IMG/VR virus record: IMGVR_UViG_3300044825_001015
Span: 1-64,000 of that record
Strand: one strand, 5' to 3'
Source: a virus
DNA: 64,000 nt
Below are positions 3,597-24,353 of the stretch, one piece after another (within the stretch, counting starts at the first letter, position 1; each line of letters begins with the position of its first letter). A program made the position numbers and the translations under genes. The notes under the pieces were generated by a model. That model was not told the origin of the DNA, ran no database searches, and saw nothing but the letters and a program-made list of their open reading frames with translations.

Positions 3597-3662
3597 TTCC
3601 GCAAATGATACTATAGAGATTATCTAAATTTATTGCCCACATGTTGGGCCAGGGAGAATTGT

Positions 3663-5594: not shown

Positions 5595-5595
5595 A

Positions 5596-8359: not shown

Positions 8360-9412
8360 ATGGCTAAGAGATTCTTAGTTAGTTTAGACCTCGGCACCAA
8401 TGAATTGCAGAATGCCGTAATTCAGAATTTGCCTGCGGCTTCAGAGCCATCTGGCGTAAAGGGTCGGGTCTACTTTGATTCAACTAATAATAAGTTGAAA
8501 GTTTACGATGGTACAACATGGCAACCATTGGCATTCGGTGCTAATGCAGCATCAACAGTTACATTGCAAGGAGATGTTGCTGGTACTGCAAATGTAAGTA
8601 ATGGTGTTATCACAATTGATACTACCATTCAGGCAAATTCAGTTGCATTGGGTACAGATACAACAGGAAACTACCTTATAGATCTTTCTGCTGGAACTGG
8701 TGTTACTGTAACACATACACAAGGAGAAGGCTCTACAGCAACAGTTGCAATTGGTCAAGCAGTAGCGACCACAGATTCACCAACATTTGCTGGTCTTACT
8801 TCTAGCGGTGATGTAGCAGTTAATGGTGGGGATCTTACAACAACATCTACCACCGCTTCACTATTTAATGCAAATGCAACTACATTAAATATTGGTGGAG
8901 CAGCAACAACACTATCAATAGGAGCAGCAACTGGTACAACTACGGTAAATAACAATCTTGTTGTTACTGGAAACCTTACTGTTGATGGAACTACCACAGT
9001 ATTGAATACCGCGACACTTGAGGTAGAAGACAATGTTGTTCTTCTGAACAAGGGTGTTACTGGAGTACCTTCATTAAATGCTGGTCTAGAAGTTGAAAGA
9101 GGAGACTCTGCTAACGTATCCATACTTTGGAACGAAACTCTAGATTCATGGTCATTTACTAATGATGGAACAACATACTACAACATGGTTCGCAAGTTTG
9201 CTTCTGATCTTACTGGTGACGGAGCAACAAGTGCATTTACTGTAACTCACGGACTAGGAACTAGAGATGTGCAAGTTGAAGTTTACGATGCTGCATCTCC
9301 ATACGACTGTATAGTAGTTGATGTTGAAAGAACATCTACTTCTGCAGTAACTGTGAGATTCGCAACTGCTCCAGTTATTGGAGTAAATTATAGGGTAGTA
9401 GTAGTAGGATAG
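8360..9412 (+). CDS. Fibre/virion structural protein
   Basis: Thr/Gly-rich beta repeats, GNLTVDGTTT, AGLEVERG, C-terminal THGLGT domain. Confidence 0.7.
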   Translation: MAKRFLVSLDLGTNELQNAVIQNLPAASEPSGVKGRVYFDSTNNKLKVYDGTTWQPLAFGANAASTVTLQGDVAGTANVSNGVITIDTTIQANSVALGTDTTGNYLIDLSAGTGVTVTHTQGEGSTATVAIGQAVATTDSPTFAGLTSSGDVAVNGGDLTTTSTTASLFNANATTLNIGGAATTLSIGAATGTTTVNNNLVVTGNLTVDGTTTVLNTATLEVEDNVVLLNKGVTGVPSLNAGLEVERGDSANVSILWNETLDSWSFTNDGTTYYNMVRKFASDLTGDGATSAFTVTHGLGTRDVQVEVYDAASPYDCIVVDVERTSTSAVTVRFATAPVIGVNYRVVVVG

Positions 9413-9419
9413 TTTTGGT

Positions 9420-9443
9420 GGGTGGGGGAGAAATCCCCCACCC
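9420..9443 (+). promoter_or_regulatory. GC-rich hairpin with GAAA tetraloop directly upstream of an RBS
   Basis: GGGTGGGGGA-GAAA-TCCCCCACCC; no U-tract; AAGGAG and a GTG start follow. Confidence 0.6.
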
Positions 9444-9459
9444 AAACTAAGGAGATAAA

Positions 9460-11124
9460 GTGTCTAAAAGATTTTTTACGCCGATAGACCTTACGGGTAC
9501 AATTAGTGATTCTCCTGCTTCAGAAAGATCAATGAAGTGGTCAGATGGAGAAGGTACCTTAGAATTAGGACTAAAGGGTGGAAATGTAAAATTAGAAGTA
9601 GGTCAACAAGAGGTTGCATTATGCTATAACGGTACTGGCTCTACCATACCAAAAGGTAGTGTCGTCTATATCTCTGGCGCACAAGGTCAACGACCAAGGA
9701 TATCCCTTGCCTCAGCGTCATCTGAAATATCTTCATCTAAAACTTTTGGAATTACCTCAGAGCAAATATTAAATGGCGCAGAGGGATTTGTAACTACATT
9801 TGGAATTATTAGAAATGTAAATACTTCTGGATATACGCCAGGGCAGGCACTTTGGCTATCTACTACTGCAGGAGCATATACAAATACTGCTCCTGTAGTA
9901 CCAAACCACTCAGTATTTGTAGGCTATTGTATTAAGGCTAATGCAAGTTCTGGTCAAATTTTTGTCAATATTCAAAATGGATATGAACTTCAAGAACTTC
10001 ACAATGTTTTCATAGAAAATCCATTAAATGGACAAGCACTAAGATATAATTCTACTACTGGTCTATGGGAAAACGAATCTATTGACGGAGGAGTTTTTGA
10101 GGTATTTTATCAACCCTCCGCACCATCATCACCACTACTAGGTGATATCTGGGTAGATTCTGATGAATCTATTCCTACATATAATGCTTTAACAATTAAT
10201 GATCTTCTTCCTAATCAATCTAGCAACTCTGGTAAGTTTTTAACAACAAATGGTTCCTCCCCTTCTTGGGCCACAATAGATTTATCTACATATGCAACTT
10301 TAAACTCACCATCACTTACTGGTACGCCGATTGCCCCAACTGCTTCAGCGGGGACTAATACAACTCAAATTGCAACCACCGCTTTCGTTAGAACAGAAGT
10401 TACAAATTTAGTTGCCTCCGCCCCAAGCGCCCTAGATACTCTAGATGAACTTGCCGCAGCACTAGGTGATGATGCCAATTTTGCTACAACAGTAACTAAT
10501 TCACTTGCTGGGAAAGAGCCAACTATTACTTCTGGAACAACATCTCAGTACTGGCGCGGAGACAAAACATGGCAAACACTTAATAAATCATCTGTCGGAC
10601 TTTCTAATGTAGAAAATACTGCCTTATCAACATGGGCTGGAAGTTCAAATATAACTACTCTAGGCACAATTTCTTCTGGCACATGGCAAGGGTCTTCTAT
10701 TTCATCAACGTATATTGACCCAGCAATAGCAAGATTATCAAGTCCTACGTTTACTGGAACAGCAAATGCAGAAAGACTCTCTGTTGATTCAACAGCGTAT
10801 ATTGATACTATAACAACAACCGTATCATCTACAAGCGCTACAGAGATAGACTCATTCGTTCAATCATTATTCTCTTCCTGTGAATATTTAATTCAAATTA
10901 AACAAGGCTCTAAGGTTACAATACTCAAAGCATTGATGACTTCGGTGGACCTTGATATAGTTCAGTATGGAATAGTAGAATCTGGAGGAACTATCCCTTA
11001 TACAATAACTACAGACAGTTTTATCCCAGGTGGTGGATCAGTCACTAACAAATTATTAATTACAATAACTGATGCCAATTCTACCTCTGCGACAGTTAAG
11101 GTTGTAAGAACATCCGTGGTATAA
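9460..11124 (+). CDS. Tail-fibre-like protein with a P2 gpH-type repeat block
   Basis: SPSLTGTPIAPT...IATTAFV...LDTLDELAAALGDDANFATT. Confidence 0.78.
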   Translation: MSKRFFTPIDLTGTISDSPASERSMKWSDGEGTLELGLKGGNVKLEVGQQEVALCYNGTGSTIPKGSVVYISGAQGQRPRISLASASSEISSSKTFGITSEQILNGAEGFVTTFGIIRNVNTSGYTPGQALWLSTTAGAYTNTAPVVPNHSVFVGYCIKANASSGQIFVNIQNGYELQELHNVFIENPLNGQALRYNSTTGLWENESIDGGVFEVFYQPSAPSSPLLGDIWVDSDESIPTYNALTINDLLPNQSSNSGKFLTTNGSSPSWATIDLSTYATLNSPSLTGTPIAPTASAGTNTTQIATTAFVRTEVTNLVASAPSALDTLDELAAALGDDANFATTVTNSLAGKEPTITSGTTSQYWRGDKTWQTLNKSSVGLSNVENTALSTWAGSSNITTLGTISSGTWQGSSISSTYIDPAIARLSSPTFTGTANAERLSVDSTAYIDTITTTVSSTSATEIDSFVQSLFSSCEYLIQIKQGSKVTILKALMTSVDLDIVQYGIVESGGTIPYTITTDSFIPGGGSVTNKLLITITDANSTSATVKVVRTSVV

Positions 11125-11157
11125 TAAAACTATCAAATCCTGGGGAGAGTGAACTGG

Positions 11158-11694
11158 GTGCCCGACAAGAATTTTAAAGTCAAGAATGCCCTTGAATTAG
11201 GAACCGCGTCGATTGTGACGCCTGGTGGGACTCTATCATTACCAAGTTCAACAGATACTGTTGTGGGCAGGGCGACAAGTGATATTTTAAGCAATAAGAC
11301 TTTACAAAGCGTAGAAGAAATAACTACTATATCAGCCATCGCAGCAACGGGAACTATAAACTTTGATGCAGTTACTTCATCGATGTTATATTACACATCT
11401 AATTCAACTGCTAACTGGACATTAAATGTTAGAGGAAATTCTGGCACTACACTTAATTCTATCCTTCCAGTAGGAAGTTCATTAACAATAGTTTTTATGG
11501 CTACTAATGGTACTACCGCATACTATCAAACTGGGTTTCAAATAGATGGAGCATCTCAAACTTTGAGATGGCAAGGAGGATCTGCTCCAACTGAAGGAAC
11601 TGCTTCTGCTATAGATGTATATTCATTCTCTATAACAAAAACTGCAGCAACTCCAACATATGTAGTATTGGCAAGTGTGGCAGGTTTTGCGTAA
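11158..11694 (+). CDS. Fibre adaptor protein, cassette A (paralog of 19932-20564)
   Basis: DKNFKVKN N-terminus; C-terminal YYTSNSTANWTLN...IDVYSFSITKT...FA domain shared with 19932; GTG start 11158 (or 11149). Confidence 0.65.
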   Translation: MPDKNFKVKNALELGTASIVTPGGTLSLPSSTDTVVGRATSDILSNKTLQSVEEITTISAIAATGTINFDAVTSSMLYYTSNSTANWTLNVRGNSGTTLNSILPVGSSLTIVFMATNGTTAYYQTGFQIDGASQTLRWQGGSAPTEGTASAIDVYSFSITKTAATPTYVVLASVAGFA

Positions 11695-12809
11695 TGCCAT
11701 TAATGTCATCCCGTGCGGGAGGCTCTGCAAGAGCATTTGGATTGACAATCCTATCAGCGCTTACCCTTGTCCTTGAAACATTTAATAGGTCTGACCAGTC
11801 TGGTCTTGGTTCGGTTCGCGGTCAAAGATGGAGAGTCTTACGAGGAGTATGGTCAATTGTTGGGAATAAAGCCCTATCTTCAACTGCTGCTGGAGACAAT
11901 GCTTTAGCAACATTAAGATTTACTAAAACAGACGTTACAATTAGTGTATCTGGTGCAGATCCAGGAGTAGGAGCAGCATTCTGGGTTACAGATGCAAATA
12001 ATTGGTATGCTTCTGTTTATACTCAAACAGAAACATGTCAAACATGTTCAAATTGTAATTCTTTTAGTGGTGGTAATTGTGCTGCTGCCACCCCAGGAAA
12101 TTGTAATGCATTTACTCCAGGAACTTGTAATCAAAATGCTACAGGAAATTGTGCGAATGGAACATTCTGCTGTGCAGCGCCGACGCCAGGAACGTGTATT
12201 TCTTTTACATGCCTAGGTGGATTTACCCCAGGAAACTGTAAAGTATTTAATAGTGCTAATACAGGAAATAGAAATCCACCCTTCGGATTTTGCCACGCAC
12301 CATTAGGATTCAACCCTCCAACATGTAATACTTCTATAGTTTGTGCAAATAGCAACCCTCCAACATGTAATGCTGGTCAATGTTGTAACGGAAATTTCCC
12401 TACATGGTCGCCATATTGTGCTGGATTTTTTAATTCTCCTACTTGCCCACCAATAAACTTTAACGCACCAGTTTGTAATTCATTTAATCCAGTAGTTTGT
12501 AATGCATTTTTTACATTTTCCTGCAACTGTACTACTGAACATAGAATTTCAATACTCAGGTCTTTAGCGGGTACAGTTTCTAATATAAGCAATAATTTAT
12601 TTAGTGCAGCAATACAATCATTTAGAGTAATACTTTCTGGAAACCAGGCTACAATACAATCATTTTCAACTGCTTCTTATACATCTCAAATAGGAAATTC
12701 AGTTGTGCAATCTATAACTAGTCCACAAAAAACAACTCAGCATGGTATAATTAAGTCTACTTCAAGTTTTCAGCAAGGAACATCAATAAACGAATTCGGA
12801 GTAAATTGA
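11694..12809 (+). CDS. Putative virion appendage protein: beta-rich domain with a 165-aa, 24-Cys insert
   Basis: Coupled (TAATG) to the adaptor; Cys115-Cys279 with ~8-residue periodic CxxxTPGN/NPPTC units. Confidence 0.65.
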   Translation: MPLMSSRAGGSARAFGLTILSALTLVLETFNRSDQSGLGSVRGQRWRVLRGVWSIVGNKALSSTAAGDNALATLRFTKTDVTISVSGADPGVGAAFWVTDANNWYASVYTQTETCQTCSNCNSFSGGNCAAATPGNCNAFTPGTCNQNATGNCANGTFCCAAPTPGTCISFTCLGGFTPGNCKVFNSANTGNRNPPFGFCHAPLGFNPPTCNTSIVCANSNPPTCNAGQCCNGNFPTWSPYCAGFFNSPTCPPINFNAPVCNSFNPVVCNAFFTFSCNCTTEHRISILRSLAGTVSNISNNLFSAAIQSFRVILSGNQATIQSFSTASYTSQIGNSVVQSITSPQKTTQHGIIKSTSSFQQGTSINEFGVN

Positions 12810-13102
12810 TGAAAAAAAGAGATACTTATAAATCATATTTAATTAAAAAAATATTAGGCGTAGACACTACATACTACAAGCCTAACCCAAAATTTACTAG
12901 ATCAGATCAAGTTCCTATGCATCTTGCACTAGTAATTGATGGGGTAGTTGAAGATATAATTCATTGTGACGAAAGACTTGGCTATATATTATTAAGCAAT
13001 CCAGATATTATTGATATAAAAGATAAATTTAGAAAAGTTAATATATCTGATATATATGATGAAGAATCGAACACTTTTTCTAAGGAAGTAAAAAATGTCT
13101 GA
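12809..13102 (+). CDS. Hypothetical protein (paralog of 13327-13530)
   Basis: LALVIDGVVE...ILLSNPDIIDI. Confidence 0.65.
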   Translation: MKKRDTYKSYLIKKILGVDTTYYKPNPKFTRSDQVPMHLALVIDGVVEDIIHCDERLGYILLSNPDIIDIKDKFRKVNISDIYDEESNTFSKEVKNV

Positions 13103-13334
13103 AAGGCAAGTAAGACCATGGGATCTTTTTAATAAAAAAATGGGTAGAGTAGACAATGAAACCTATAAAAAAAGATTAGAAATTTGTCAAACATGCCCTG
13201 AATTAATAAAAACTACATTTCAATGTAAAAAGTGTGGATGCTTTATGAAACAAAAAAATAAATTAGCAGATGCAAGTTGCCCGCTAAAAAAGTGGGGAGT
13301 TCATAAGATAGAGGAGGTGTCAACAAATGAATGA
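13095..13334 (+). CDS. Small Cys-rich protein (DUF6171-like)
   Basis: RLEICQTC...QCKKCGCFMKQK...SCPLKKW; family name recalled, not searched. Confidence 0.65.
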   Translation: MSERQVRPWDLFNKKMGRVDNETYKKRLEICQTCPELIKTTFQCKKCGCFMKQKNKLADASCPLKKWGVHKIEEVSTNE

Positions 13335-13530
13335 AAGAGTTTTAGCATTTGTCATTGATGGTAAGGTAGAAAGAGTCATGAGATTTGATGAAGCCAATGC
13401 TGCTATTTTCTTATCAAATCCTAATGTCATTGATATAACAGATGTTCAAGTGACTGAATCATGGAATTACGATCCATCAAAGGGATTTTATGCAGATATA
13501 GACGGAACAGAACTGGTTATTCCTAAATGA
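13327..13530 (+). CDS. Hypothetical protein (paralog of 12809-13102)
   Basis: LAFVIDGKVE...IFLSNPNVIDI; SD GAGGAGGTG. Confidence 0.65.
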   Translation: MNERVLAFVIDGKVERVMRFDEANAAIFLSNPNVIDITDVQVTESWNYDPSKGFYADIDGTELVIPK

Positions 13531-14279
13531 TAAAAAGAATTAGATTTGTTCCAAATGATCTATATGCATATGAAAATATAGATCCACCCGTACCATCTAA
13601 AGCACTTGTACCAGATTGGTATAGGTCTGGAGAAATTGCTGTACATGCAGATACGGGTAAAATAGCAAAGACAAGCGATAATCATATAATTGGTGGCATG
13701 AAATCATGCATCCCATTTTTAGACGCAATTATTTCAGGGTACTCAATATGTCTATGGGAAGATTTATATGTAGCAACTACTGATAAGGTAGAAAAATTTT
13801 ATTCAGTTGAAAAAAACCCATATACCGATAATTATGAAGAAAAGCAACAACCATATCTTCCAATGGTAGAAGAAAGAACTGGAGATAGTGGCTATACGAT
13901 TCCTAGACCAAATGGATATTGCCATAACCATATGATTTTTAAGGGTCAATGGGGAGTAAGACTTCCAAAAGGCTGGAGCCTTGAAGTTACACATCCATTA
14001 AATAGGTTTGATCTTCCATTTATTACTACATCTGGTATCATTGATTCAGATGAATGGTGGACTGGAGGAAACATTCCATTTTTCTTCCAGAAGGATTTTG
14101 AAGGAGTTATTCCTAAAGGAACGCCAATAGCACAGTTAATTCCAATAAAAAGAAGTTCATGGATTTCTTATGTTAGTGAATTAAGTGCTTCAAGAAGTAG
14201 ATATATTTCTAATAAAGTTAGATCTGTACCTATGGGATGGTATAAAAATAATATTTGGGTTAAGAAAGAGTACAACTAG
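13527..14279 (+). CDS. dUTPase-fold/DUF6065-related protein
   Basis: KSCIPFLDAIISGY; THPLNRFDLPF..SGIIDSD; IPKGTPIAQLIP. Confidence 0.6.
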   Translation: MIKRIRFVPNDLYAYENIDPPVPSKALVPDWYRSGEIAVHADTGKIAKTSDNHIIGGMKSCIPFLDAIISGYSICLWEDLYVATTDKVEKFYSVEKNPYTDNYEEKQQPYLPMVEERTGDSGYTIPRPNGYCHNHMIFKGQWGVRLPKGWSLEVTHPLNRFDLPFITTSGIIDSDEWWTGGNIPFFFQKDFEGVIPKGTPIAQLIPIKRSSWISYVSELSASRSRYISNKVRSVPMGWYKNNIWVKKEYN

Positions 14280-14280
14280 A

Positions 14281-15036
14281 ATGTCTAAAGAATCATTAAA
14301 TATAGAGTTTCTTCCAGTTGAGAATTTTGGTGTCGGATGTATTGAACCTGTCCCAGCATCTAGAGAAATACCTAAATGGTATAAAAAAATGCCTTCACTA
14401 AGGAAATTTTGGAATCAGGAGGACCCAGATGAAAAAGCAGACTATACAGCAAAAAAATGTATACCAATATTAGATGCATTTACAACTGGATATTATTTAG
14501 TGACTAAATATGATTCATATTGGAGTGTAGATGAAGATGGCACACATGAATGTAAATGCGATGCTAAATTAGTAGAAGGCGGGTCCAAGCCTATCACTAT
14601 GCATCCATATGAGCAGATTAGGGGAATAGAACTCGGAGGCATCTATAACGAATATGCCTATAAGTTTACAAACCCTTTTGTCATTAAAACACCTCCTGGA
14701 TATAGTTGTATGTTTACACATCCATTTAATCAAGTATCTCCATTTCTAACCCTTACTGGAGTGGTAGATACAGATATGCATCCATTGGCAGTACAATTTC
14801 CATTTCTTATGTTAAAGAATTATGAAGGAGTAATCAAATCAGGAACTCCTATTGTTCAAATAATTCCATTTAAGAGAGATGATTGGACGTACTCAGTAAG
14901 AAAGCCAAATAACTTAGATGTTCAGGAAAGTTCTTTAAGGCACAGCCAGTTTGGTTCTACTAGATATGATAAGGACGGAAACCCAACTGGTGGAGAATAC
15001 AAAAAGAAATATCGCGTTAAAAAGAAATATTTGTAG
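14281..15036 (+). CDS. dUTPase-fold/DUF6065-related protein
   Basis: KKCIPILDAFTTGY; TGVVDTD; IKSGTPIVQIIPFKR; start 14281 by alignment with paralogs. Confidence 0.6.
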   Translation: MSKESLNIEFLPVENFGVGCIEPVPASREIPKWYKKMPSLRKFWNQEDPDEKADYTAKKCIPILDAFTTGYYLVTKYDSYWSVDEDGTHECKCDAKLVEGGSKPITMHPYEQIRGIELGGIYNEYAYKFTNPFVIKTPPGYSCMFTHPFNQVSPFLTLTGVVDTDMHPLAVQFPFLMLKNYEGVIKSGTPIVQIIPFKRDDWTYSVRKPNNLDVQESSLRHSQFGSTRYDKDGNPTGGEYKKKYRVKKKYL

Positions 15037-15044
15037 GAGATATT

Positions 15045-15641
15045 GTGGCTATTGAAATATTCCCAGGAGCAGTACAATTCGATTTTTCTAAATCTTTAGC
15101 AAAAGAAATAATTAAGCAAGCAGAAAAATCTAAGTATCCATGGATGGACTCAGCAGTAGGAACGGGGTCTGGTTCTATTGCTAAACATGTTCGATCCAGC
15201 CTATCCCTTGGACTAGATGCCCTAGAAATATCACAAAAAGAAGTAAGACCATACATTTATGAATGTGTAAAACAATATACATCATATTATGATGTAGAGG
15301 TTACAAAAGATGACGGACTTACTCTGCTAAAGTATGAATCTTATGATAAATATCAATTTCATATTGATTATGGTCCAGGTAATTATAGAGAAGTATCATG
15401 TTTAATTTATCTTAATCCAGGTGAATATGAAGGTGGAGGAACAACATTTAAGCATTTTAATTACACTATACAGCCAGAAGAACCTACACTAGTTCTTTTC
15501 CCTTCAAACTACCCATATTTGCACGCAGCAGAACCAGTATCTAAAGGGAGAAAGTATATAATAGTAACATGGATGACAAATCAAATAGATAATATGATGA
15601 CGCATGGATCTGCATGTTCATGTGGGCTTAATCATTTATAA
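15045..15641 (+). CDS. Prolyl-4-hydroxylase-type 2OG-Fe(II) oxygenase
   Basis: FHID...SCLIYLN...YEGGGTTF...HAAEPVSKGRKY (His...Lys+10). Confidence 0.87.
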   Translation: MAIEIFPGAVQFDFSKSLAKEIIKQAEKSKYPWMDSAVGTGSGSIAKHVRSSLSLGLDALEISQKEVRPYIYECVKQYTSYYDVEVTKDDGLTLLKYESYDKYQFHIDYGPGNYREVSCLIYLNPGEYEGGGTTFKHFNYTIQPEEPTLVLFPSNYPYLHAAEPVSKGRKYIIVTWMTNQIDNMMTHGSACSCGLNHL

Positions 15642-15670
15642 AAAAGTAATTTTTGAGTTATAATAATAAT

Positions 15671-16852
15671 ATGGCAAAAGTAGCAAGAGTATGGGATGGT
15701 TCTGAATGGGTTGTACTCTCTCCTGCGACTATAAATCCATACCCATCCCAAACAGGAAATTCTGGTAAATTTTTAAGCACAGATGGGTCTGCAGTATCAT
15801 GGCAAACAGTAGATTTATCTAGTAAGGCTAATATAAATTCTCCAGAATTTACTGGAATTCCAACTGCTCCAACTGCTGCACCAGGAACAAATAGCACCCA
15901 GATTGCTACTACAGGATTTGTTTATAATGAAATATCGCTATTGATAGATGCCGCCCCAGCAGCATTAAATACTTTAAATGAATTAGCAGCAGCACTAGGT
16001 GACGATGCAAATTTTGCCACCACAATAACAAATGCCGTATCAGGCAAAGAGCCTAGTATTCCAACAGGAACTACCCAACAATATTGGAGGGGAGATAAAA
16101 GTTGGCAAACATTAGATAAAAATGCGGTAGGATTAAGCAACGTAGAAAATACTGCTTTAAGTACATGGGCAGGATCAACAAATATAACTACTGTAGGAAC
16201 ATTAACAAATCTAACCGTAACAAATACTATTACAGGAAGTATTACTGGTAATGCTGGAACAGTAACAAATGGGGTATACACTACAGGATCATACTCTAAT
16301 CCATCCTGGATCACATCTCTTTCTGAAACAAAAGTTCTTCCAAGTCAGACAGGAAATTCTGGAAAGTATTTAACTACCAACGGAACGTCCACTTCTTGGA
16401 CAGAACTTAATGTATCTTTTAACTCACCATCTTTTACTGGGACACCTACTGCACCAACTCCTCCAACTGGAAATAATTCCACAAGAATAGCAACCACAGA
16501 ATTTGTTCAAAAGACTCTAGAAATAACACAACTAGATACATTTACGTTCGACGGGAAGACTTTAAGATTTCTTCCAACCTATCTGGGTCAGGTAGTGGAA
16601 ATAGACCACCCACTTAGGCTTTTACTAAACATTAATGGTATAATTCAGATAGTAGCCGAAAAACCAAGCACAGTCTGGCTATCTGGAATGGCAAGTTATG
16701 GTTATTACATAGATGATGAAGGATATGTAGTACTTCCAGAGCCACCAGAACCAGGATCGTACTTTGAGGCTAGGCTATTTCCAGGAGTGGATTTGCAAAA
16801 AAGACCAGAAACTTATCCATTCAGGGCAATTGATATATACTTAGGAGATTAA
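15671..16852 (+). CDS. Tail-fibre-like protein with P2 gpH-type repeat blocks
   Basis: ~150-aa block paralogous to the 9460 protein plus a partial internal copy; start MAKVARVWDG. Confidence 0.78.
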   Translation: MAKVARVWDGSEWVVLSPATINPYPSQTGNSGKFLSTDGSAVSWQTVDLSSKANINSPEFTGIPTAPTAAPGTNSTQIATTGFVYNEISLLIDAAPAALNTLNELAAALGDDANFATTITNAVSGKEPSIPTGTTQQYWRGDKSWQTLDKNAVGLSNVENTALSTWAGSTNITTVGTLTNLTVTNTITGSITGNAGTVTNGVYTTGSYSNPSWITSLSETKVLPSQTGNSGKYLTTNGTSTSWTELNVSFNSPSFTGTPTAPTPPTGNNSTRIATTEFVQKTLEITQLDTFTFDGKTLRFLPTYLGQVVEIDHPLRLLLNINGIIQIVAEKPSTVWLSGMASYGYYIDDEGYVVLPEPPEPGSYFEARLFPGVDLQKRPETYPFRAIDIYLGD

Positions 16853-16856
16853 TTTA

Positions 16857-19800
16857 ATGGCTAGAAGAGTAATTGCAGAGGGTTATAGTTTTGATCCTGC
16901 TGAATCAACAATTGTTATAAATAGATTTATTAGACAAGAGCATTTGACTCTTATTACAAATGTGACCAGAAATACAGTTATCTTCAACTTTTCTGATCCA
17001 GCACTTAATGCTGTCACATATAATGCTCAGACATTAAATACCCGTCAGGGAGCGGTTCTTGATAGAGATACACTAACTTACTCACCGTCTTCAGGAACTA
17101 CAACAATAGAACTTAACTACAATACCTCTGGAATGTCTTCTACAGATAAATTACAGATTCTTGTAGACGAGCCATCAGAAACATTTAGACCAGATGAGGT
17201 TTATAGAGATCCTGTTGACAAACTAAGAGTCTCAACTCCACAGTCATTAATTGATACAGACTTTGAATACTCTCCACAGCCATCAAAATGGGAATCCCTA
17301 AGTTTAAGCCTAAATTATCCTTCATTTTATTCTAGAACGTCTGGAGCCTCAACGTTCGATCTTAATGCTATCTCTGGAGGAGGACAATCTCCAAGATCAA
17401 CAATTACAGTAACAACGAATGTTGCACATGGACTTAATGTTGGTGATGTAGTAGTTGTTCAAGATTCACTTAATCAACTAGCAGAGGGAACATTCTTAGT
17501 AGATACAGTTCCATCATCTACACAACTTACCTATACCGCTGCTGGAGTTGTAAATGGGTCTATTATAGATGGCTCCTACACAACAGTATATGGCGGAGGC
17601 ATCTTTGACGGTGCTAGAATTCCTATTGCTAATTCTGCTTCAGCAATTACATATTCTGGAACAAGAATTACAGTAGCAACAGCCGCACCACACGGACTTT
17701 TGCCTGGAACACCAATTCTTCTTAGAAATATTAGTGCAACCACAAATGCGCCAAATGGAAACTGGGTTGTAGATACAGTAGCAACACCAACAACATTTTC
17801 ATTTACTGCTGCAGCAACACCAACTGGAACACTATCATCTGGAACAAATTTCCAAAGCGCACTTCTTTATGTAAGACCAGAAGGATATCAGCAGCATAGA
17901 GCATTAGATGGTGGTGTTCTAATCACTACTGGAGGTCCATCTAATGGATCTCAAATTATTCGTCAAACAAGACGCTATTTCAGATATCAGTCTGGAAAAG
18001 GAATTCAGTACTCTACTGGCGTTAAATTTACTCCAACATTCGATATTGAATCAATATCAGCAACAGGAAATATTGTAACTATTACTACTATTCAAGATCA
18101 TAATTTGCAAGTTGGAACATCAATAAAAGTAGAGGGAATTATTTCAGCCGCTGGAAATGCAGATAGTGATATTTATAATATTACTGCTGTAGTAGCATCT
18201 ATTACTGGATCTAAGTCATTTACATATAATACAACTTCTGTTCCAACAGATACTGCTCCAGGTGGAACTAATATCTATGTTACAGCAGTAAACTGGAAGG
18301 GATCTGCAGTAAGGGCTGGACTGTTTGATGATCAGAACGGATTCTTCTTTGAGTATGATGGTCAAACATTATATGCATGTAGAAGAGACTCAGTAAAGGA
18401 ATTATTTGGTAGAGTAAGTGTTACCAATGGATCAAGTTCAGTTACTGGAACAGGAACAAGATTTACAGAGCAAGTGGTTGCTGGAGAATATGTTGTAATC
18501 AAGGGTCAAAGTTATATGGTTACATCAATTATTTCTAACACATCCATGACAATTGCACCAGCATACCGTGGAGCAACAAGATCAAATTGTAGATATCTTA
18601 AGACTCAAACTTATAAGATTCCTCAATCTGCATGGAATATGGACCCTGTGGATGGAACTGGCCCATCTGGATACAATATAGATGTTTCAAAGATGCAGAT
18701 GGTTTACATCGATTACACTTGGTATGGTGCAGGACACATTAGATTTGGATTCCGTGGACCTAATGGAGATATTTATTATGCCCATAAGATGCCAAATAAC
18801 AATGTAAATACCGCAGCATATATGCGCTCTGGAAACTTGCCAGGTAGATTTGAGGCTATTAACTATGGCCCAACTACAAGATTAGTTGCTGGTGCAACAG
18901 TCGCAAGAGGTTCTGCATTGTTACCAGCGCATGGAACATTGTATGTAGAGGATGCTGCAAATTGGCCTTCAGAGGGATATATTCTAGTTAAAGACAATGT
19001 AAATTGTGAAATGATAAGGTACCAGAGCCTTGGAGAATATAATGTTTTAGCAAGAGGGTACCCACTATCTAATTTAACTAGAAGAGTTACATATTCATAT
19101 GCTGGAATTAATCCATCAGGATCATTCTCTTCAACAGCATATACTTTATCTGGAACTACTTCAAACGTTACATTCACTCCAGATTCTGGAATGGGTGGAG
19201 TAGGAACTGATGGGCAAGTTTCTGTACAGTATATTTATAGTGATTGTGCCCCAGTTGTTAGCCATTGGGGTGTGTCTGTAATCATGGACGGTAGATATGA
19301 TGATGATAAGTCTATTATTTTCACCGCTGGTATGAATAGATATATGTCAATTGCTGCTGGTGCCCAAAGACCGCTCCTAGCAATTAGAATTGCACCTTCA
19401 GTTGATGCCGGAATTGGAAAGAACTTTGGAATTAGAGAAATTGTAAATAGAATGCAGTTAACTCTTAACTCCATGGAAGTTTTCTCACAGGGACAGTTTT
19501 TGATTGAAGGAATTCTTAATCCACAGACAATCGGCGGCGGCAGTTTAACACTTCCTGCAAACTGGGAAACTATATCAGTAGGATCAGGATCATTGGCCCA
19601 GGTTGTATACTTCGATGGAACTGCCCCATATAGTGCAACTGCAGCAACAGCAAGTGGTACATTTACTGGAGGAGACAGGGTGTTTGCTTTCTATGCAGAA
19701 AACTCTGGTGGAACAAACCCATCTGCTACCTCGTTTGATCTATCAAAGGCTAGAGATCTAGGAACATCTATTCTAAGTGGTGACGGACAGGCTGGAAATA

Positions 19801-19916
19801 TCAATCCTGGATTCCCAGCAGGCCCAGATATTCTACTTATCACAGCAAGAAACCTTGCGGCTACTGGAAATGCTAATATTGCTGCAAGAATTTCATGGAC
19901 AGAAGCACAGGCATAA
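16857..19916 (+). CDS. Large virion structural protein
   Basis: VDKLRVSTPQSLIDTDFEY; three T..AHGL/HNL beta repeats; RQTRRYFRYQSGKG. Confidence 0.7.
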   Translation: MARRVIAEGYSFDPAESTIVINRFIRQEHLTLITNVTRNTVIFNFSDPALNAVTYNAQTLNTRQGAVLDRDTLTYSPSSGTTTIELNYNTSGMSSTDKLQILVDEPSETFRPDEVYRDPVDKLRVSTPQSLIDTDFEYSPQPSKWESLSLSLNYPSFYSRTSGASTFDLNAISGGGQSPRSTITVTTNVAHGLNVGDVVVVQDSLNQLAEGTFLVDTVPSSTQLTYTAAGVVNGSIIDGSYTTVYGGGIFDGARIPIANSASAITYSGTRITVATAAPHGLLPGTPILLRNISATTNAPNGNWVVDTVATPTTFSFTAAATPTGTLSSGTNFQSALLYVRPEGYQQHRALDGGVLITTGGPSNGSQIIRQTRRYFRYQSGKGIQYSTGVKFTPTFDIESISATGNIVTITTIQDHNLQVGTSIKVEGIISAAGNADSDIYNITAVVASITGSKSFTYNTTSVPTDTAPGGTNIYVTAVNWKGSAVRAGLFDDQNGFFFEYDGQTLYACRRDSVKELFGRVSVTNGSSSVTGTGTRFTEQVVAGEYVVIKGQSYMVTSIISNTSMTIAPAYRGATRSNCRYLKTQTYKIPQSAWNMDPVDGTGPSGYNIDVSKMQMVYIDYTWYGAGHIRFGFRGPNGDIYYAHKMPNNNVNTAAYMRSGNLPGRFEAINYGPTTRLVAGATVARGSALLPAHGTLYVEDAANWPSEGYILVKDNVNCEMIRYQSLGEYNVLARGYPLSNLTRRVTYSYAGINPSGSFSSTAYTLSGTTSNVTFTPDSGMGGVGTDGQVSVQYIYSDCAPVVSHWGVSVIMDGRYDDDKSIIFTAGMNRYMSIAAGAQRPLLAIRIAPSVDAGIGKNFGIREIVNRMQLTLNSMEVFSQGQFLIEGILNPQTIGGGSLTLPANWETISVGSGSLAQVVYFDGTAPYSATAATASGTFTGGDRVFAFYAENSGGTNPSATSFDLSKARDLGTSILSGDGQAGNINPGFPAGPDILLITARNLAATGNANIAARISWTEAQA

Positions 19917-19931
19917 GAAAGGAATATTTAA

Positions 19932-20564
19932 ATGCCAATTAATAGAATTAGATTAGATGATGTTGATATTAGAAACATTACGTCTACTACATCATTGCTA
20001 AATACTACATTAGGTCAGGTTCAAGAAGATGTGGCAAATAATCTAATATCTACTAATAACTCTATTGCACAACTACAATCAGATTTAAGAAATCTTGATG
20101 GGGAAGTAGATACAAAGGCAAATATAAATAGTCCTACATTTACTGGTACCGTAACTGCTGGAAGCACATTAATTACAAATGAAGTAGTTGAAAATTACTT
20201 ACTTCGTGGTGAAGGTGCTACTGGAACTTTAAATATAAATATTTCAGATTCATCAATACACTACTATGTAAATAATTCTAGTGCTAACTGGACATTTAAT
20301 TTTAGAGCAAGTGATTCTGTTTCTTTAAACACATTCCTTTCTGGTGGTCAGGCGGTAACTGCAACAATATTAATTACTAATGGTGCTACCCCATTTAGAC
20401 CAACAGCATTTCAAGTAGATGGAGTTTCAACTACCGTAAGATGGGCAGACGCTCTTGTACCAGCATCTGGAAATGCAAATAGTATTGATATTTATTCATT
20501 TAGTATACTTAAGACAGGAAACAACACATTTGTTGTGCTAGGTAGTTTTGCAAGGTTTGCGTAA
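19932..20564 (+). CDS. Fibre adaptor protein, cassette B (coiled coil plus shared C-terminal domain)
   Basis: YYVNNSSANWTFNFR...IDIYSFSILKT...FA, paralogous to 11158. Confidence 0.65.
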   Translation: MPINRIRLDDVDIRNITSTTSLLNTTLGQVQEDVANNLISTNNSIAQLQSDLRNLDGEVDTKANINSPTFTGTVTAGSTLITNEVVENYLLRGEGATGTLNINISDSSIHYYVNNSSANWTFNFRASDSVSLNTFLSGGQAVTATILITNGATPFRPTAFQVDGVSTTVRWADALVPASGNANSIDIYSFSILKTGNNTFVVLGSFARFA

Positions 20565-21481
20565 TGCCTTTTATATCTAAGTTTAGTGGACATGGGAGGG
20601 TTCCTGGAATTCATAAGCCAGAGGCACCACCAACTCCTACACTATCCGCAACTGCTTCAACAATAAACAGCCTAACATTTACGATAAATAACTATGTTGC
20701 AAATTGGACATATGTAATAAGCATATCTCCTAGTGCTGGAACAATATCTCGTACTGATGGAACAGTAAGTGTTACTGGGTTAAATTCAAGTACAACATAT
20801 ACTCTTACTGTAACAGCAAGAAATTCTGGAGGCGAGGCCACAAATACTGTAAATGGAACTACTGGAACTCCACCACCATTCTTCCCTTCATTTGCTCCAT
20901 TCTTTCCCTTCTTCCCAAGTTTTCCCTTCTTCCCATTTTTCCCAAGTTTTCCGTTCTTCCCATTTTTCCCAAGTTTTCCGTCGTTTCCATTCTTCCCCAA
21001 CTTTGTTAGGCCAGGGCCAGCACCAGTAAAAACTGCACCATCTGCAGCGTTATCAGATATACAAAGCATACAAATATTAACATCAGAATATGGATATTTG
21101 GATGCAAAGTATTTAACTGAAGAGGACAAATTAAAGTCATATGCATTAGAAGGAATCGGTACCAATAAAGTAAACATTATTGAAGACATAGATACTGAAA
21201 TAATAAAAATAGATTCTCATAGTGATGTTAGTAATATTTATTTTATTAATAACGAGGGCTATTCTTCAAACTGCTACCTACTCTGTAGAAGGAACGATAT
21301 AATAGATTTTATTAATGTTAAAGAGATAAGCGAATCTGACAAAATTTTTAATTACGAAAATAAAGATTTTGTTGATATAAAATCTTATAGATCAGAAAGC
21401 GTTTCTGGTATTATTTATAATATAGAATGTCTACCAATTAACTACTATGTGATACACAGTAGTTTAGGTTACTTTAAATAA
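20564..21481 (+). CDS. Putative appendage protein: FN3-like domain, (Pro-x-Phe)14 repeat and degenerate Hint-like domain
   Basis: VTGLNSSTTYTLTVTARN (FN3); PFFPSF repeats; C-terminal 140 aa follow the Hint block pattern. Confidence 0.7.
   Translation: MPFISKFSGHGRVPGIHKPEAPPTPTLSATASTINSLTFTINNYVANWTYVISISPSAGTISRTDGTVSVTGLNSSTTYTLTVTARNSGGEATNTVNGTTGTPPPFFPSFAPFFPFFPSFPFFPFFPSFPFFPFFPSFPSFPFFPNFVRPGPAPVKTAPSAALSDIQSIQILTSEYGYLDAKYLTEEDKLKSYALEGIGTNKVNIIEDIDTEIIKIDSHSDVSNIYFINNEGYSSNCYLLCRRNDIIDFINVKEISESDKIFNYENKDFVDIKSYRSESVSGIIYNIECLPINYYVIHSSLGYFK
20876..21004 (+). repeat. Coding tandem repeat: 14 Pro-x-Phe triplets, including ~2.5 copies of a 27-bp unit (20912-20980)
   Basis: TTCCCAAGTTTTCC(C/G)TTCTTCCCATTT repeated. 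Confidence 0.92.
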
Positions 21482-21496
21482 AGAAAGAAAATAAAT

Positions 21497-22225
21497 ATGA
21501 ATGAGTGGCTTGATAAGTCTCGTGAAGAGACTGATACTAGGCGTATGCCAGATAAATATTTAGACGAAATTATTGTATCCAACCCAGCATTAGGAATTAA
21601 TGTATATAGAAATGCTATACCTAAAGATTCATGTAAAAAAACTATATCAACTTTAGAAAAGGTTCTTAACTCTACTGGTCCTTATAGTTGGCAGCCAGCA
21701 AATGTTACTGAATCTGATGACCCGTTATTAGAGGCAAGATACTGTGTTGATTTTAAAATTGGTCAAAAAAATCTAGGTGAAGTAAATCAATATAATAAAA
21801 AATTGTATGAATTACATGAAGACATATTCCAGTATGTCTATAAGTGTTCTGTAGATTATGGAAGATACTGGGGTGTCGGACTGAACTACTTTGAGGTATT
21901 TAATTTTGTTAGATATGAAAGTCCTGGTCAACACTTTAATATTCATGCAGATCATGGACCAGCATATGTAACAACAATATCTGCAGTAGCATACTTAAAT
22001 GATGACTATGAAGGTGGAGAGTTATATTTCCCTAGATTTAATTTAACAATAAAGCCAGAGGCTGGAGATATAGTATTTTTCCCATCTACATTTATTTATG
22101 AGCATTCATCTGAGCCAATGATATCTGGAACTAAATATTCAGTAGTTATAATGACTGATTATAATTCTAGAGGTGGTCTTAGGTATTACCCATACAGACA
22201 AAATGAAGAAACTTTAATTTATTAG
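21497..22225 (+). CDS. Prolyl-4-hydroxylase-type 2OG-Fe(II) oxygenase
   Basis: IHADHG...AYLNDDYEGGELYF...HSSEPMISGTKY. Confidence 0.88.
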   Translation: MNEWLDKSREETDTRRMPDKYLDEIIVSNPALGINVYRNAIPKDSCKKTISTLEKVLNSTGPYSWQPANVTESDDPLLEARYCVDFKIGQKNLGEVNQYNKKLYELHEDIFQYVYKCSVDYGRYWGVGLNYFEVFNFVRYESPGQHFNIHADHGPAYVTTISAVAYLNDDYEGGELYFPRFNLTIKPEAGDIVFFPSTFIYEHSSEPMISGTKYSVVIMTDYNSRGGLRYYPYRQNEETLIY

Positions 22226-22232
22226 GATTTAT

Positions 22233-22931
22233 ATGGAAGATATAAAAGATATAGAAAATAATATTAAAAATTTTTATTCTTATTCTGGACAAACATGGTC
22301 TTCATATGAAGAGGTTGCAAATGGTATATATGTTTTCCATGACTTAATCCCTAGTGTATCGGTAAAAATGCTAGAAGATGTTATGTCTGATACCTATAAT
22401 CCATATTCTTATTCCAAGGCTATGGTGGGGTATCAAATGCATATACCAGAGTACAGAGATTGCTTGGACTTTAAATATAAAAAAACAGATATTGAAAATG
22501 ACAATAGTATATCTGGAATGATGCTTAAGAAACTATGGGATATGATTTATAACAAATCATTGCCTGCCGTTAAAAAATATTGTGAAGATTTTAATATAGG
22601 AGAACTTAGGTACTGGGAGTCTATGAATTTTGTTAAGTATGGCCCTGGTCAACATTTTCAGGAGCATCATGACCATGGTTTTTCTTATAATTGTGTAGTT
22701 TCTTTAGTAGGATATCCAAATGATGATTATGAGGGTGGAGAGATATATTTTAGAAGGCAGGGTTTAGAAATAAAGCCAAAAGCAGGGGACCTGTTTGTGT
22801 TTCCATCAAATTTCATGTATCCACATAGAGCAATGCCAGTAAAAAGCGGTAATAAGTACTCTATAGTCACGATGCTTGATTACTCAGATAAGTTTCACAA
22901 GCCAGAATTTTATCAGGAAACCAATTCATGA
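22233..22931 (+). CDS. Prolyl-4-hydroxylase-type 2OG-Fe(II) oxygenase
   Basis: EHHDHG...YPNDDYEGGEIYF...HRAMPVKSGNKY. Confidence 0.88.
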   Translation: MEDIKDIENNIKNFYSYSGQTWSSYEEVANGIYVFHDLIPSVSVKMLEDVMSDTYNPYSYSKAMVGYQMHIPEYRDCLDFKYKKTDIENDNSISGMMLKKLWDMIYNKSLPAVKKYCEDFNIGELRYWESMNFVKYGPGQHFQEHHDHGFSYNCVVSLVGYPNDDYEGGEIYFRRQGLEIKPKAGDLFVFPSNFMYPHRAMPVKSGNKYSIVTMLDYSDKFHKPEFYQETNS

Positions 22932-23641
22932 ATTTAATAGATGCATATCAATCAGAAGAATCAGTTGTAAATATTGATCAACTTCCTATGTCAAGAGACT
23001 GGATGGATAGGACATTTAGTAAGCATTCCTATCATTGCTTTCCGATGACTTTATCTAATAGATTAGGATGGGGAATATCCTTAAAACATGACTTCTGCTT
23101 TATATGGGATGGTGAAGAGTCTTCTAGTTCTCATCATATTAATATAATTAAAGGTCAAGATTATGTAAGTAATCTTAGAGGAAACAAAACAATAAGCATA
23201 GATACTGGACTATATATTTCTCCACAAAAAAATATTTCAATATTAACTATGCCTCCTCCCAATATTTTTATTGAAGGTCTGCAATGCATAAGTACTATTA
23301 TTAGCACATCTGCAATGGTCGGGCCTCTTCCAATAGCATTGATGGCTAATATTCCAAACAAAAAAATCTATATTAAGGCAGGAACAATATTGGCTAGCAT
23401 CCTTCCTGTTAAACTTTCTGAAATGAATGAGACAGAACTTCACATTAAAAAAGGAATACCTCCCTTTATGATGACTAAAGAATGGACAGACAACTTTGAA
23501 GAAAGAAGTAAAGTTTCAATGGAGGTAAATTCCAAGGGAGGGTGGAATGATTTTTATAGAGATGCTATAGACCATAGAGGTGTAAGGCATGGAGAGCATG
23601 AGGCTAAAAAAATAATTATGAAGGTAGTCCATGAAGATTAA
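22928..23641 (+). CDS. DUF6065-like protein
   Basis: RDWMD...HSYHCFPMTLSNRLGW; PPPNIF; IKAGTILASILP; FYRDA. Confidence 0.65.
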   Translation: MNLIDAYQSEESVVNIDQLPMSRDWMDRTFSKHSYHCFPMTLSNRLGWGISLKHDFCFIWDGEESSSSHHINIIKGQDYVSNLRGNKTISIDTGLYISPQKNISILTMPPPNIFIEGLQCISTIISTSAMVGPLPIALMANIPNKKIYIKAGTILASILPVKLSEMNETELHIKKGIPPFMMTKEWTDNFEERSKVSMEVNSKGGWNDFYRDAIDHRGVRHGEHEAKKIIMKVVHED

Positions 23642-24353
23642 TTTCATATCTAATAGGCCATGGTTAAATAAAAAAAGTAAAACTAATCCAGAACCCTCAG
23701 TAAAAAATATACCTGACTGGTATATAAAAGAGAGTAGATATGTTAAAGATGATTTAGGAAACTATACCCTAGATCAATACGGACATAAAGTTCCTTCCTG
23801 GAAAGGCTGTCCAGCAATATATGACATTATTGGTACTGGGTATGTATTGAAAACACCATGTGACATTGAATTTTACCAAGATGGCGATGATTTTAAAGTA
23901 AAACTTAACAAAAGATATTCAGATTTCATACAGTATAGGCCAGACTGGTCATTGCATGGATTTCCTAAGCCAGAGGGATATAGAAAGGACCACTTTGCTT
24001 GGTGGCCTGATTGGGCAATAGAAGTTCCAGATGGATATAGCGTTTTATACTCTCAGCCATTCAATAGATTTGACCTACCATTTTTAAATACTACTGGAAT
24101 TGTAGACAACGATAAGGTAAACCTTCCAGGAACTATGCCATTTTTTGTAAGAGAGGGATGGGAGGGAGTAATAAAGCAAGGTACCCCATATCTACAAATT
24201 TTACCATTTAAAAGAGAAGATTGGGATTCTGACTATATTTTCCCAGATGAATACGAAATGTATGAAAAAAATATGAAGAATATTGAAAAGTATAGAGTAC
24301 CTGGAGGGGGAGTCTATCTTAATCAAGTATGGTCTAAGAGAAGGTACTCATAG
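23631..24353 (+). CDS. dUTPase-fold/DUF6065-related protein
   Basis: WKGCPAIYDIIGTGY; QPFNRFDLPF..TGIVDND; IKQGTPYLQILPFKR. Confidence 0.6.
   Translation: MKINFISNRPWLNKKSKTNPEPSVKNIPDWYIKESRYVKDDLGNYTLDQYGHKVPSWKGCPAIYDIIGTGYVLKTPCDIEFYQDGDDFKVKLNKRYSDFIQYRPDWSLHGFPKPEGYRKDHFAWWPDWAIEVPDGYSVLYSQPFNRFDLPFLNTTGIVDNDKVNLPGTMPFFVREGWEGVIKQGTPYLQILPFKREDWDSDYIFPDEYEMYEKNMKNIEKYRVPGGGVYLNQVWSKRRYS

Follow-up and report, generated by a model that had tools for sequence, protein, structure and literature searches.

Two probable tail-fibre-tip cassettes of an uncultured lake phage place candidate protein-tailoring enzymes behind a lectin-fold protein and a Pro-Phe repeat protein

Hydroxylation and glycosylation of repeat proteins by virus-encoded or cytoplasmic enzymes are already known from the prolyl 4-hydroxylase (P4H) of chlorovirus PBCV-1, from L230 of mimivirus and from the P4H-Gnt1 pathway of Skp1. 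Here, two gene cassettes are analysed which lie in the first 64 kb (64,000 nucleotides, hereafter the window) of the IMG/VR record IMGVR_UViG_3300044825_001015, an uncultured lake phage whose complete record has 104,844 bp with direct terminal repeats. In each cassette a tail-fibre adaptor gene and a distal "passenger" gene are followed by 2-oxoglutarate (2OG)-Fe(II) oxygenases of the P4H type (O1 to O3) and DUF6065-like proteins (D1 to D4). Of the auxiliary genes of aquatic phages that still lack an explanation, those for P4H-type 2OG oxygenases are some of the commonest; DNA repair, control of 2OG and secondary metabolism were proposed for them between 2007 and 2010.

The enzyme of PBCV-1 reportedly accepts the virus's own proline-rich repeats, a finding said to go back to Eriksson et al. 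in 1999. It resembles the present case as a virus-encoded P4H-type enzyme with Pro-rich repeats of its own virus, and its structure (5c5t) is among the matches of O1. However, PBCV-1 is a virus of eukaryotes, its one enzyme has neither a dUTPase-fold partner nor a fixed adjacency, and the viral repeats are Pro-Ala-Pro-Lys and not Pro-Phe-Phe. At the level of the fibre tip, T-even-like phages (T2/T6 and S16) encode the gp38 adhesin right after the fibre-tip gene, and gp38 attaches by its N-terminal part. Similarly, each passenger gene of the window directly follows an adaptor gene and begins with a conserved segment of putative binding function, but the passengers have no sequence match to gp38 and carry a Cys-rich insert or a Pro-Phe tract in place of its Gly-rich motifs.

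In the Skp1 pathway of Dictyostelium and Toxoplasma, a cytoplasmic P4H (PhyA/P4H1) acts first and the GT60 enzyme Gnt1 then adds N-acetylglucosamine (GlcNAc) to the hydroxyproline (PMC6939170). That pathway is eukaryotic, concerns one defined proline of a regulatory protein instead of a repeat and includes no DUF6065, whereas the acceptor of the GT60-type enzymes of phages is putative. Mimivirus, with its collagens and the lysyl hydroxylase/glycosyltransferase L230, is also a virus which modifies its own repeat-bearing fibre proteins (PMC5802723, PMC9546862), but the substrates are collagen Gly-X-Y repeats, the chemistry is that of lysine and not of proline, and the hosts of this giant virus are amoebae.

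For bacterial operons that pair beta-hydroxylase-type dioxygenases with sulfotransferases, Iyer et al. (2010; PMC2938197) predicted an action on collagen-like or tail-collar proteins encoded alongside. In these operons, too, repeat or fibre-type proteins from the same locus are the proposed substrates, to be hydroxylated and then sulfated, and one related phage locus has an oxygenase-sulfotransferase fusion; the operons differ in being bacterial, in their dioxygenase families and in lacking DUF6065. The same authors described in cyanophage Syn9 a dioxygenase array (gp41-gp54) with a dUTPase-fold, conserved-Cys protein (PMC2938197), so that the initial annotation of the window, which was made from its sequence alone and was not aware of a description, is only partly right on this point. 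By hmmsearch, the Syn9 protein gp43 belongs to the D family (E 1.7e-20), and the array stands immediately after a tail-fibre block with the adaptor-like gp35 and the Gly-rich gp36. Unlike the window cassettes, the Syn9 array includes tryptophan halogenases and a JmjC-type enzyme, and no Pro-Phe or Cys-insert passenger adjoins it. The window instead distributes the array over two small cassettes, and the gene of a candidate protein substrate stands immediately before each of them. What this locus adds is the occurrence of twin cassettes whose passengers differ in chemistry, an adaptor and docking logic common to unrelated phages, the lectin-fold identity of passenger A with its tie to DUF6171, and the evidence from GT60 genes and fusions.

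The twin architecture seen by the initial annotation is real: an adaptor and a passenger, followed by P4H-type 2OG oxygenases and DUF6065-like proteins, occur twice. All the genes that it named are present on the + strand at the positions given, except that the open reading frame (ORF) of adaptor A begins with GTG at 11149 and not at 11158, and that D2 most likely starts at 14281. The features of cassette A are as follows.

11149-11694, + strand: adaptor A, 181 aa; the C-terminal ~120 residues are a phrog_5906 domain (E 1.2e-26)
11686-11698, + strand: junction A, TTTGCGTAATGCC, stop/start overlap (F-A-stop / M-P)
11694-12809, + strand: passenger A, 371 aa; putative N-terminal docking peptide, predicted ConA-like lectin beta-sandwich, Cys/Pro/Asn-rich insert (~12036-12530)
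12806-13102, + strand: s1, small protein of 98 aa, paralogue of s3; recurs downstream of passenger-A homologues
13095-13334, + strand: s2, Cys-rich small protein, DUF6171 with CxxC motifs (PF19668 E 3e-7; phrog_13558 E 7.5e-17)
13327-13530, + strand: s3, small protein of 67 aa
13527-14279, + strand: D1, DUF6065-like (phrog_7084 E 2.7e-33); aligns with D4 in the joint profile A1
14281-15036, + strand: D2, DUF6065-like (PF19541 28.1 bits; phrog_7084 E 2.5e-41)
15045-15641, + strand: O1, P4H-type 2OG-Fe(II) oxygenase (PF13640 E 9e-14, 52.6 bits)

Those of cassette B are the following.

19932-20564, + strand: adaptor B, 210 aa, paralogue of adaptor A (phrog_5906 E 1.5e-25)
20556-20568, + strand: junction B, TTTGCGTAATGCC, 13 bp identical to junction A, stop/start overlap
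20564-21481, + strand: passenger B, 305 aa; putative docking peptide, FN3, (Pro-x-Phe) period-3 repeat, degenerate Hint-like C-terminal domain
21497-22225, + strand: O2, P4H-type 2OG-Fe(II) oxygenase (PF13640 E 4.3e-13, 50.5 bits)
22233-22931, + strand: O3, P4H-type 2OG-Fe(II) oxygenase, closest paralogue of O2 (PF13640 E 5.6e-14, 53.3 bits)
22928-23641, + strand: D3, bona fide DUF6065 (PF19541 E 3.4e-21, 76.2 bits)
23631-24353, + strand: D4, DUF6065-like, modelled with a dUTPase fold (phrog_7084 E 9.3e-38; AlphaFold2 (AF2) pLDDT 91)

Comparative genomics inclines us, with some reserve, to read the region as two tail-fibre-tip modules in which the enzymes of each cassette tailor its passenger. 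In detail, an adaptor ending in a phrog_5906 domain and a distal passenger would be coupled in translation by a TAATG overlap, and the passenger would dock on the adaptor by its N-terminal peptide, which is short and conserved (M-P-hydrophobic-hydrophobic-x-S/K...G). Behind each passenger, a tailoring set would be encoded that acts on the low-complexity part of this passenger during assembly. In this set, the P4H-type oxygenases would hydroxylate proline, and possibly other residues, and the pairs of dUTPase-fold DUF6065-family proteins would work with them. The hydroxyl groups may then be glycosylated or sulfated in relatives, and probably also here by way of a GT60-type gene at 78.7 kb. We infer this course of events, from the docking and the location on the virion to the substrate and every chemical step, out of the gene content, folds, motifs, bidirectional linkage and gene fusions observed.

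A statistical linkage of passengers and enzymes across phage genomes, which the initial annotation had proposed to look for, is present in both directions. In the forward direction, D4 alone served as the query and recovered 80 IMG/VR loci. In most of these, the gene of an FN3-(PFF)n protein precedes oxygenase (O) and DUF6065-like (D) genes in the order O-O-D-D-O... or O-D-O-D-O..., and the oxygenases of a block number up to eight or more. In the reverse direction, IMG/VR was scanned for DNA encoding P-F-F-P-P-F-F-P-P-F-F-P, disregarding the enzymes, and those repeat genes were counted for which 3 kb or more of DNA is available downstream. An O or a D gene is located within 3 kb downstream of 59 of the 69 Pro-Phe repeat genes (52 of 62 sequence clusters), with D in 46 and O in 57, compared with 2 of 47 genes (2 of 44 clusters) in the upstream control. 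Most of the exceptions encode large fibre proteins in which the repeat is internal. Among the clusters of passenger-A homologues, D or O is found downstream in 11 of 20 and upstream in 0 of 21, and both O and D are absent from three loci whose passengers are Gly-rich.

The enzyme subtypes track the type of the passenger, since D1/D2/O1-like genes accompany the Cys-insert proteins and O2/O3/D3/D4-like genes the Pro-Phe proteins, in agreement with the earlier suggestion that each cassette carries enzymes matched to its own passenger. Many of these loci probably belong to related lake phages and, thus, the counts overstate the number of independent events. However, the adjacency is kept across two gene orders and at 31-70% protein identity, which argues for selection on adjacency. 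Within this genome, D genes are found in the two cassettes only.

Gene fusions and neighbouring glycosyltransferases indicate the kind of chemistry that may be involved. The locus L064 has a DUF6065-oxygenase fusion gene (4769-6016; Pfam E 5.6e-30 and 4e-8), and a collagen-like Gly-Pro-Gln repeat protein (679-1395; PF01391 E 1.7e-7) is encoded upstream of the O/D cluster holding it. At the same cluster position, three further loci (L042 at 9397-10839, L044 and L046) have a long oxygenase gene; in L042 the product begins as a 2OG oxygenase, and the whole Sulfotransfer_2 model aligns to its C-terminal half (24 bits, cut-off 22). This fusion suggests hydroxylation followed by O-sulfation. The glycosyltransferases in question belong to PF11397, which is the Gnt1/GT60 family. 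In P0204, which has no relative among the viral contigs, a PF11397 glycosyltransferase is fused to a D domain. Genes of PF11397 are also located between D1 and D2 in cassette A of four relatives (L088-L091) and beside the Pro-Phe proteins of L205, L220 and L247. This genome has its own PF11397 gene at 78739-79758 (E 9e-27), far from the cassettes, and its product has no PDB match by sequence search. Characterised Gnt1/GT60 members add GlcNAc onto the hydroxyproline of Skp1 or onto polypeptide threonine (PMC6939170). Taken together, the fusions, the GT60-type neighbours and the collagen-like protein point to polypeptide hydroxylation and then O-glycosylation or O-sulfation. The guess of a "later glycosylation" in the initial annotation thereby gains support from the GT60-type genes inside the cassettes of relatives and from the glycosyltransferase-DUF6065 fusion.

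Directly after the PF11397 gene of this genome follows a carbamoyltransferase of the NodU/CmcH type (PF16861 E 1e-51; both genes at 78739-81434 of the genome, L270 4740-7435), and the two could be a pair that adds a sugar and carbamoylates it.

The cassette oxygenases were correctly recognised as P4H-type enzymes. All three lie above the curated cut-off of PF13640 (27 bits) and have an intact HxD...H...K motif, with the Lys 8-10 residues after the distal His, as located by a motif search of the sequences. The best solved relative of O1 is the P4H of Bacillus anthracis (3itq, E 6.5e-8), and the PBCV-1 enzyme is also among its matches (E 0.017). O2 also matches 3itq (E 3e-7), and domains of the lysyl hydroxylase (LH) type (LH3) are among its sequence matches. 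The nearest solved relatives of O1 and O2 are thus peptidyl prolyl and lysyl hydroxylases, and a hydroxylase activity is predicted. The genome has seven P4H-type oxygenases, four of which are outside the cassettes (5596-6222, 83151, 88993 and 91608), so the family as a whole is not dedicated to fibre tips.

With four of the seven oxygenases placed elsewhere, the enzymes might instead be accessory genes which have gathered in a variable region by the fibre genes, and which act on host proteins, on 2OG/succinate metabolism or in a small-molecule pathway. Such roles have precedents, because cyanophage 2OG oxygenases were tied to the 2OG level or to DNA repair by Sullivan et al. (2010; PMC3037559) and to secondary metabolism in the study of Syn9 (PMC2938197), whose array includes the tryptophan halogenases. 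Nevertheless, the adjacency is immediate and directional (52 of 62 clusters downstream, 2 of 44 upstream) and survives changes of gene order, the D genes are confined to the cassettes, the GT60-type enzymes are polypeptide glycosyltransferases of which one is fused to a D domain, and the cassettes of the window are without a halogenase or a gene resembling a nonribosomal peptide synthetase (NRPS). This explanation is therefore considered unlikely, although it is the strongest of the alternatives.

The D proteins form a large family (4,516 representative clusters at E <= 1e-3), whose nearest ESM Atlas clusters are mostly viral. The Pfam model of DUF6065 (PF19541, cut-off 26.6 bits) is passed by two of the four proteins, D2 and D3; D1 and D4 do not pass it and are assigned by phrog_7084, which all four match, and by the joint profile A1. 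Across the aligned D subtypes, one Cys and some other residues do not vary. The strong structural matches of the D4 model are exclusively dUTPases, dCTP deaminases and herpesvirus proteins derived from dUTPases (Foldseek E 2e-4; the top 22 entries in VIA are all of the dUTPase type, with Z from 9.8 to 5.8). The dUTPase fold proposed earlier for the D proteins is thus supported by the model of D4, with Z up to 9.8. A working dUTPase was rejected, given that nothing in the whole genome matches PF00692 at E <= 0.01, a model that had matches in 12 of 14 control genomes. A full-text literature search found no mention of DUF6065.

By tblastn against phage isolates, D3 has no match and D4 finds haloarchaeal tailed viruses only. 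The homologue search of D3 gave close metagenomic relatives only, and the D3-type alignment against genome contigs recovered only phage-like contigs of lake metagenome-assembled genomes (MAGs), with no bacterial DUF6065 context. In Halorubrum phage HF2 (L004 6857-7741), of the HF1/HF2 group, the D-family gene adjoins a baseplate and ConA-like VP1 module, and there is no oxygenase within 7 kb. The presence of a D homologue in this group means that the family spans bacterial and archaeal viruses.

The fold of D4, shared with dUTPases and dCTP deaminases, raises a second alternative, in which the D proteins, the oxygenases and the glycosyltransferase belong to a pathway of nucleotide or DNA-base modification (hydroxylation and a glucosylation-like step) and their placement by the fibre genes is incidental. 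No canonical dUTPase is found in the genome, the GT60-type gene and four oxygenases are among nucleotide-metabolism genes (ribonucleotide reductase (RNR), ThyX, deaminase), and the L064 fusion matches Tet_JBP weakly and below the cut-off (E 0.0015). On the other hand, the oxygenases match protein hydroxylases of the P4H/LH type and not Tet/JBP or AlkB, the D proteins are without a match to PF00692, all four D genes stand in the late fibre operon directly after the passengers, and the placement after Pro-Phe proteins recurs in related loci. A nucleotide pathway is accordingly held to be quite improbable.

Non-enzymatic proteins of the dUTPase fold exist, and herpesvirus ORF10 and pp71 are among the structural matches. 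The D proteins, and perhaps s1 to s3, would then chaperone the assembly of the fibre tips, as tail-fibre assembly proteins do, or be their structural partners, with the oxygenases as unrelated neighbours, a role which the D homologue of HF2 beside its baseplate/ConA-like VP1 module with no oxygenase nearby, and the tight tie of DUF6171 to passenger A, would also suit. Yet relatives have one fusion of a D domain with an oxygenase and another with a glycosyltransferase, a better fit to an enzymatic partnership than to a pure chaperone, and the conserved Cys with the other invariant residues across the subtypes speaks in the same direction. There is little probability, in our judgement, that the D proteins are chaperones.

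As for a cluster of ribosomally synthesised and post-translationally modified peptides (RiPP), to which the initial annotation had likened the cassettes, the analogy holds in its logic only and membership was rejected, because the passengers are large (305-371 aa) multidomain proteins with folded FN3 or lectin domains, and no protease, leader or core peptide was recognised.

The preferred reading of the cassettes as fibre-tip modules draws further on the adaptors. Adaptors A and B share 47% identity across the C-terminal 116 residues (E 2e-33), and the phrog_5906 domain is also found at the end of fibre-type proteins of cyanomyoviruses (the "sericin-like" proteins of S-CAM22, S-MbCM6 and P-SSM7), of roseophage CRP-3 and of the freshwater podovirus MW202481. 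The initial annotation had pointed to the same 13 bp at both adaptor/passenger junctions, and TTTGCGTAATGCC occurs exactly twice in the window, for an expectation of 0.05 and with two matches in 0 of 100 shuffles. The junction (TTYGCNTAATGCC) is kept in close relatives at both types of cassette, an indication that its recurrence is due not to chance but to conserved ends of the proteins and a stop/start overlap, TAATG (translational coupling).

Similarly, the likeness of the N-terminal peptides of the two passengers stands, and beyond the first ~15 residues there is no similarity between them. Genes that follow phrog_5906 domains begin with a like peptide (M, a small residue, two hydrophobics, x, S/K/R, glycines) in the set compared, namely this genome, its relatives, MW202481, S-CAM22, CRP-3 and 20 distinct loci fetched later. 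The sequence downstream of the peptide differs between phages, so that the N-terminal peptide is the shared part. In MW202481, S-CAM22 and CRP-3 the passengers are Gly-rich, and one homologous locus is annotated as "tail fiber adhesin gp38". The adaptor-plus-passenger logic thus extends to unrelated phages, which indicates that the twin modules are two copies of a widespread two-gene fibre-tip unit. As predicted from these sequences, the distal proteins of this unit are exchangeable. Co-folding of three copies of adaptor B (residues 85-210) with passenger B (residues 1-105) gave a score of 0.03.

In Syn9 (L271 7932-12328), it is the C-terminus of gp35 that is adaptor-like, and the Gly-rich gp36 has an N-terminal peptide of the type described above. 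Two proteins annotated as "tail fiber assembly", gp38 and gp39, are Gly-rich and adhesin-like too. Two passengers behind phrog_5906 adaptors (L205 2140-3861 and L224 2357-3775) start with M-S-P-L-F-R and have Thr-Pro or Thr-Pro-Val-Ala-Pro repeats ahead of the Pro-Phe tract. An oxygenase follows at 133 nt after the L205 passenger and at 730 nt after that of L224, and L205 additionally has a GT60-type gene (5129-6082).

The AF2 model of passenger A, built from 22 homologues, has pLDDT >90 at residues 20-120 and 275-371 and <50 in the insert. The framework matches the carbohydrate-binding module CBM66 (4b1m; Z 16.8, root-mean-square deviation 2.4, 147 aligned), the receptor-binding domain of mycobacteriophage TM4 gp23 (9n6a; Z 15.6) and the baseplate protein of phage Douge (8zdo; Z 15.3). 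In the homologues from 51 IMG/VR loci the framework is kept, including an invariant W-V-T-D-A-x-N run, and the insert varies in length and composition, with 4-28 Cys. A fixed framework with a variable insert is the pattern expected of a host-recognition protein. By its model, passenger A is a ConA-like lectin-fold protein of the receptor-binding type with a hypervariable Cys-rich insert. In 18 of 20 sequence clusters, the gene immediately 3′ of the passenger-A homologue encodes the DUF6171 protein (s2). No family was matched by s1 in the Pfam and PHROG searches; NCBIfam gave no matches for the D proteins, s1, s2 and the passengers, and neither passenger has a match among phage isolates by tblastn.

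In passenger B, the FN3 domain scores 25.4 bits against a cut-off of 25. The repeat extends over ~20870-21004 with a 27-bp tandem unit (tandem repeat detected at 20896-20997), and the Hint-like C-terminal domain over ~21040-21481. In relatives the (P)PFF polymer is far longer, up to ~200 residues, and comes after one to five FN3 domains. In many of them the tract is followed by a domain which starts with Cys and ends with T-H-N-K, and which matches PF14890 (Intein_splicing) below the cut-off (24 bits against 35.8). The C-terminal domain of passenger B is related to these Hint-like domains by profile comparison (hhalign 92.9%, E 3.6e-7; 99.1% via an intermediate group), which was needed for this link, as BLASTP between passenger B and a relative whose Hint domain is live aligned the FN3 part alone. 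Unlike relatives such as L031, passenger B has lost both the first Cys and the terminal His-Asn. With both catalytic ends missing, autoprocessing is not expected in this phage.

Hint-like domains with intact ends are found right after the Pro-Phe tract in L031 (4478-5809), L045 (2791-4128), L050 (4466-5815) and L080 (99-1037). From their sequence, such intact domains would leave a C-terminal thioester on the tract. A 165-aa ORF on the minus strand of passenger B (20692-21189, Gly-Lys-Asn repeats) was rejected as a gene, being the reverse-complement shadow of the Pro-Phe repeat.

Several observations weigh against the tailoring of passengers by the cassette enzymes. Four of the seven P4H-type genes sit in early or nucleotide-metabolism regions, the closest paralogue of O1 is one of the oxygenases outside the cassettes, and the only GT60-type gene of the genome also lies in an early or nucleotide-metabolism region. 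The dUTPase fold modelled for the D proteins would suit a nucleotide substrate equally, and the homologous Syn9 array was read as secondary-metabolite biosynthesis (Iyer et al. 2010, PMC2938197). Within 3 kb downstream, 10 of the 69 Pro-Phe proteins have neither O nor D. Of the 20 passenger-A clusters, 9 lack D and O, with no evident relation to proline content. Furthermore, the linked loci probably come mostly from one broad group of lake phages, so that part of the linkage would be inherited synteny and not independent events. Of the interpretation given in the initial annotation, what concerns the architecture, the linkage, the folds and the enzyme families is borne out, whereas the likeness to RiPP clusters is one of logic only.

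A co-encoded candidate protein substrate makes the role of phage oxygenases testable, and DUF6065 gains its first functional context. If the tailoring is true, host recognition by phages may hinge on post-translational chemistry, which bears on the prediction of host range from sequence. A more far-reaching picture can be drawn, though speculatively and with a rather low likelihood as a whole. The fibre tips of lake phages would carry a (Pro-Phe-Phe)n appendage that is rich in hydroxyproline and glycosylated or sulfated, a phage counterpart of extensins or collagen. In the dedicated set of enzymes that makes it, DUF6065 would be a new class of protein-tailoring enzyme or a uridine-nucleotide-binding subunit. 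In those relatives whose Hint domain is live, it would release the modified tract as a thioester to be ligated to a molecule or to the virion, and the same kit would act on the Cys-rich insert.

The cassettes are placed in a co-oriented block of fibre and virion genes at 8-27 kb of the window. Megablast of the region found no DNA-level relatives among phage isolates, and a scan for promoter and terminator consensus sequences found sites no more frequent than in shuffles, which leaves the operon limits undefined. The genes flanking cassette A and lying between the two cassettes are listed below.

9460-11124, + strand: fibre gene, tail-fibre PHROGs; flanks cassette A
15653-16852, + strand: fibre gene, tail-fibre PHROGs; between cassettes A and B
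16857-19916, + strand: 1019-aa virion structural protein (phrog_5838 E 5.5e-254), ~40% identical to cyanomyovirus structural proteins; between cassettes A and B

Outside this block, a ThyX gene is located at 1534-2235 on the minus strand (PF02511 E 1e-35), and a GT4-like glycosyltransferase at 2580-3596 shows a weak match below the cut-off. The 653-aa protein at 3633-5594 resembles a ribonucleotide reductase by eye only and is abutted by the fourth P4H-type oxygenase (5596-6222). A small protein at 85850-86215 of the genome has a Cys cluster and a G-V-W-G-G motif; it is WhiB-like by eye only and suggests an actinobacterial host, which fits the lake MAG and IMG/VR origin of the relatives. The two fibre genes on either side of cassette A match the same tail-fibre PHROG families over a block of ~90-150 residues, which could serve as a recombination substrate for the swapping of whole cassettes.

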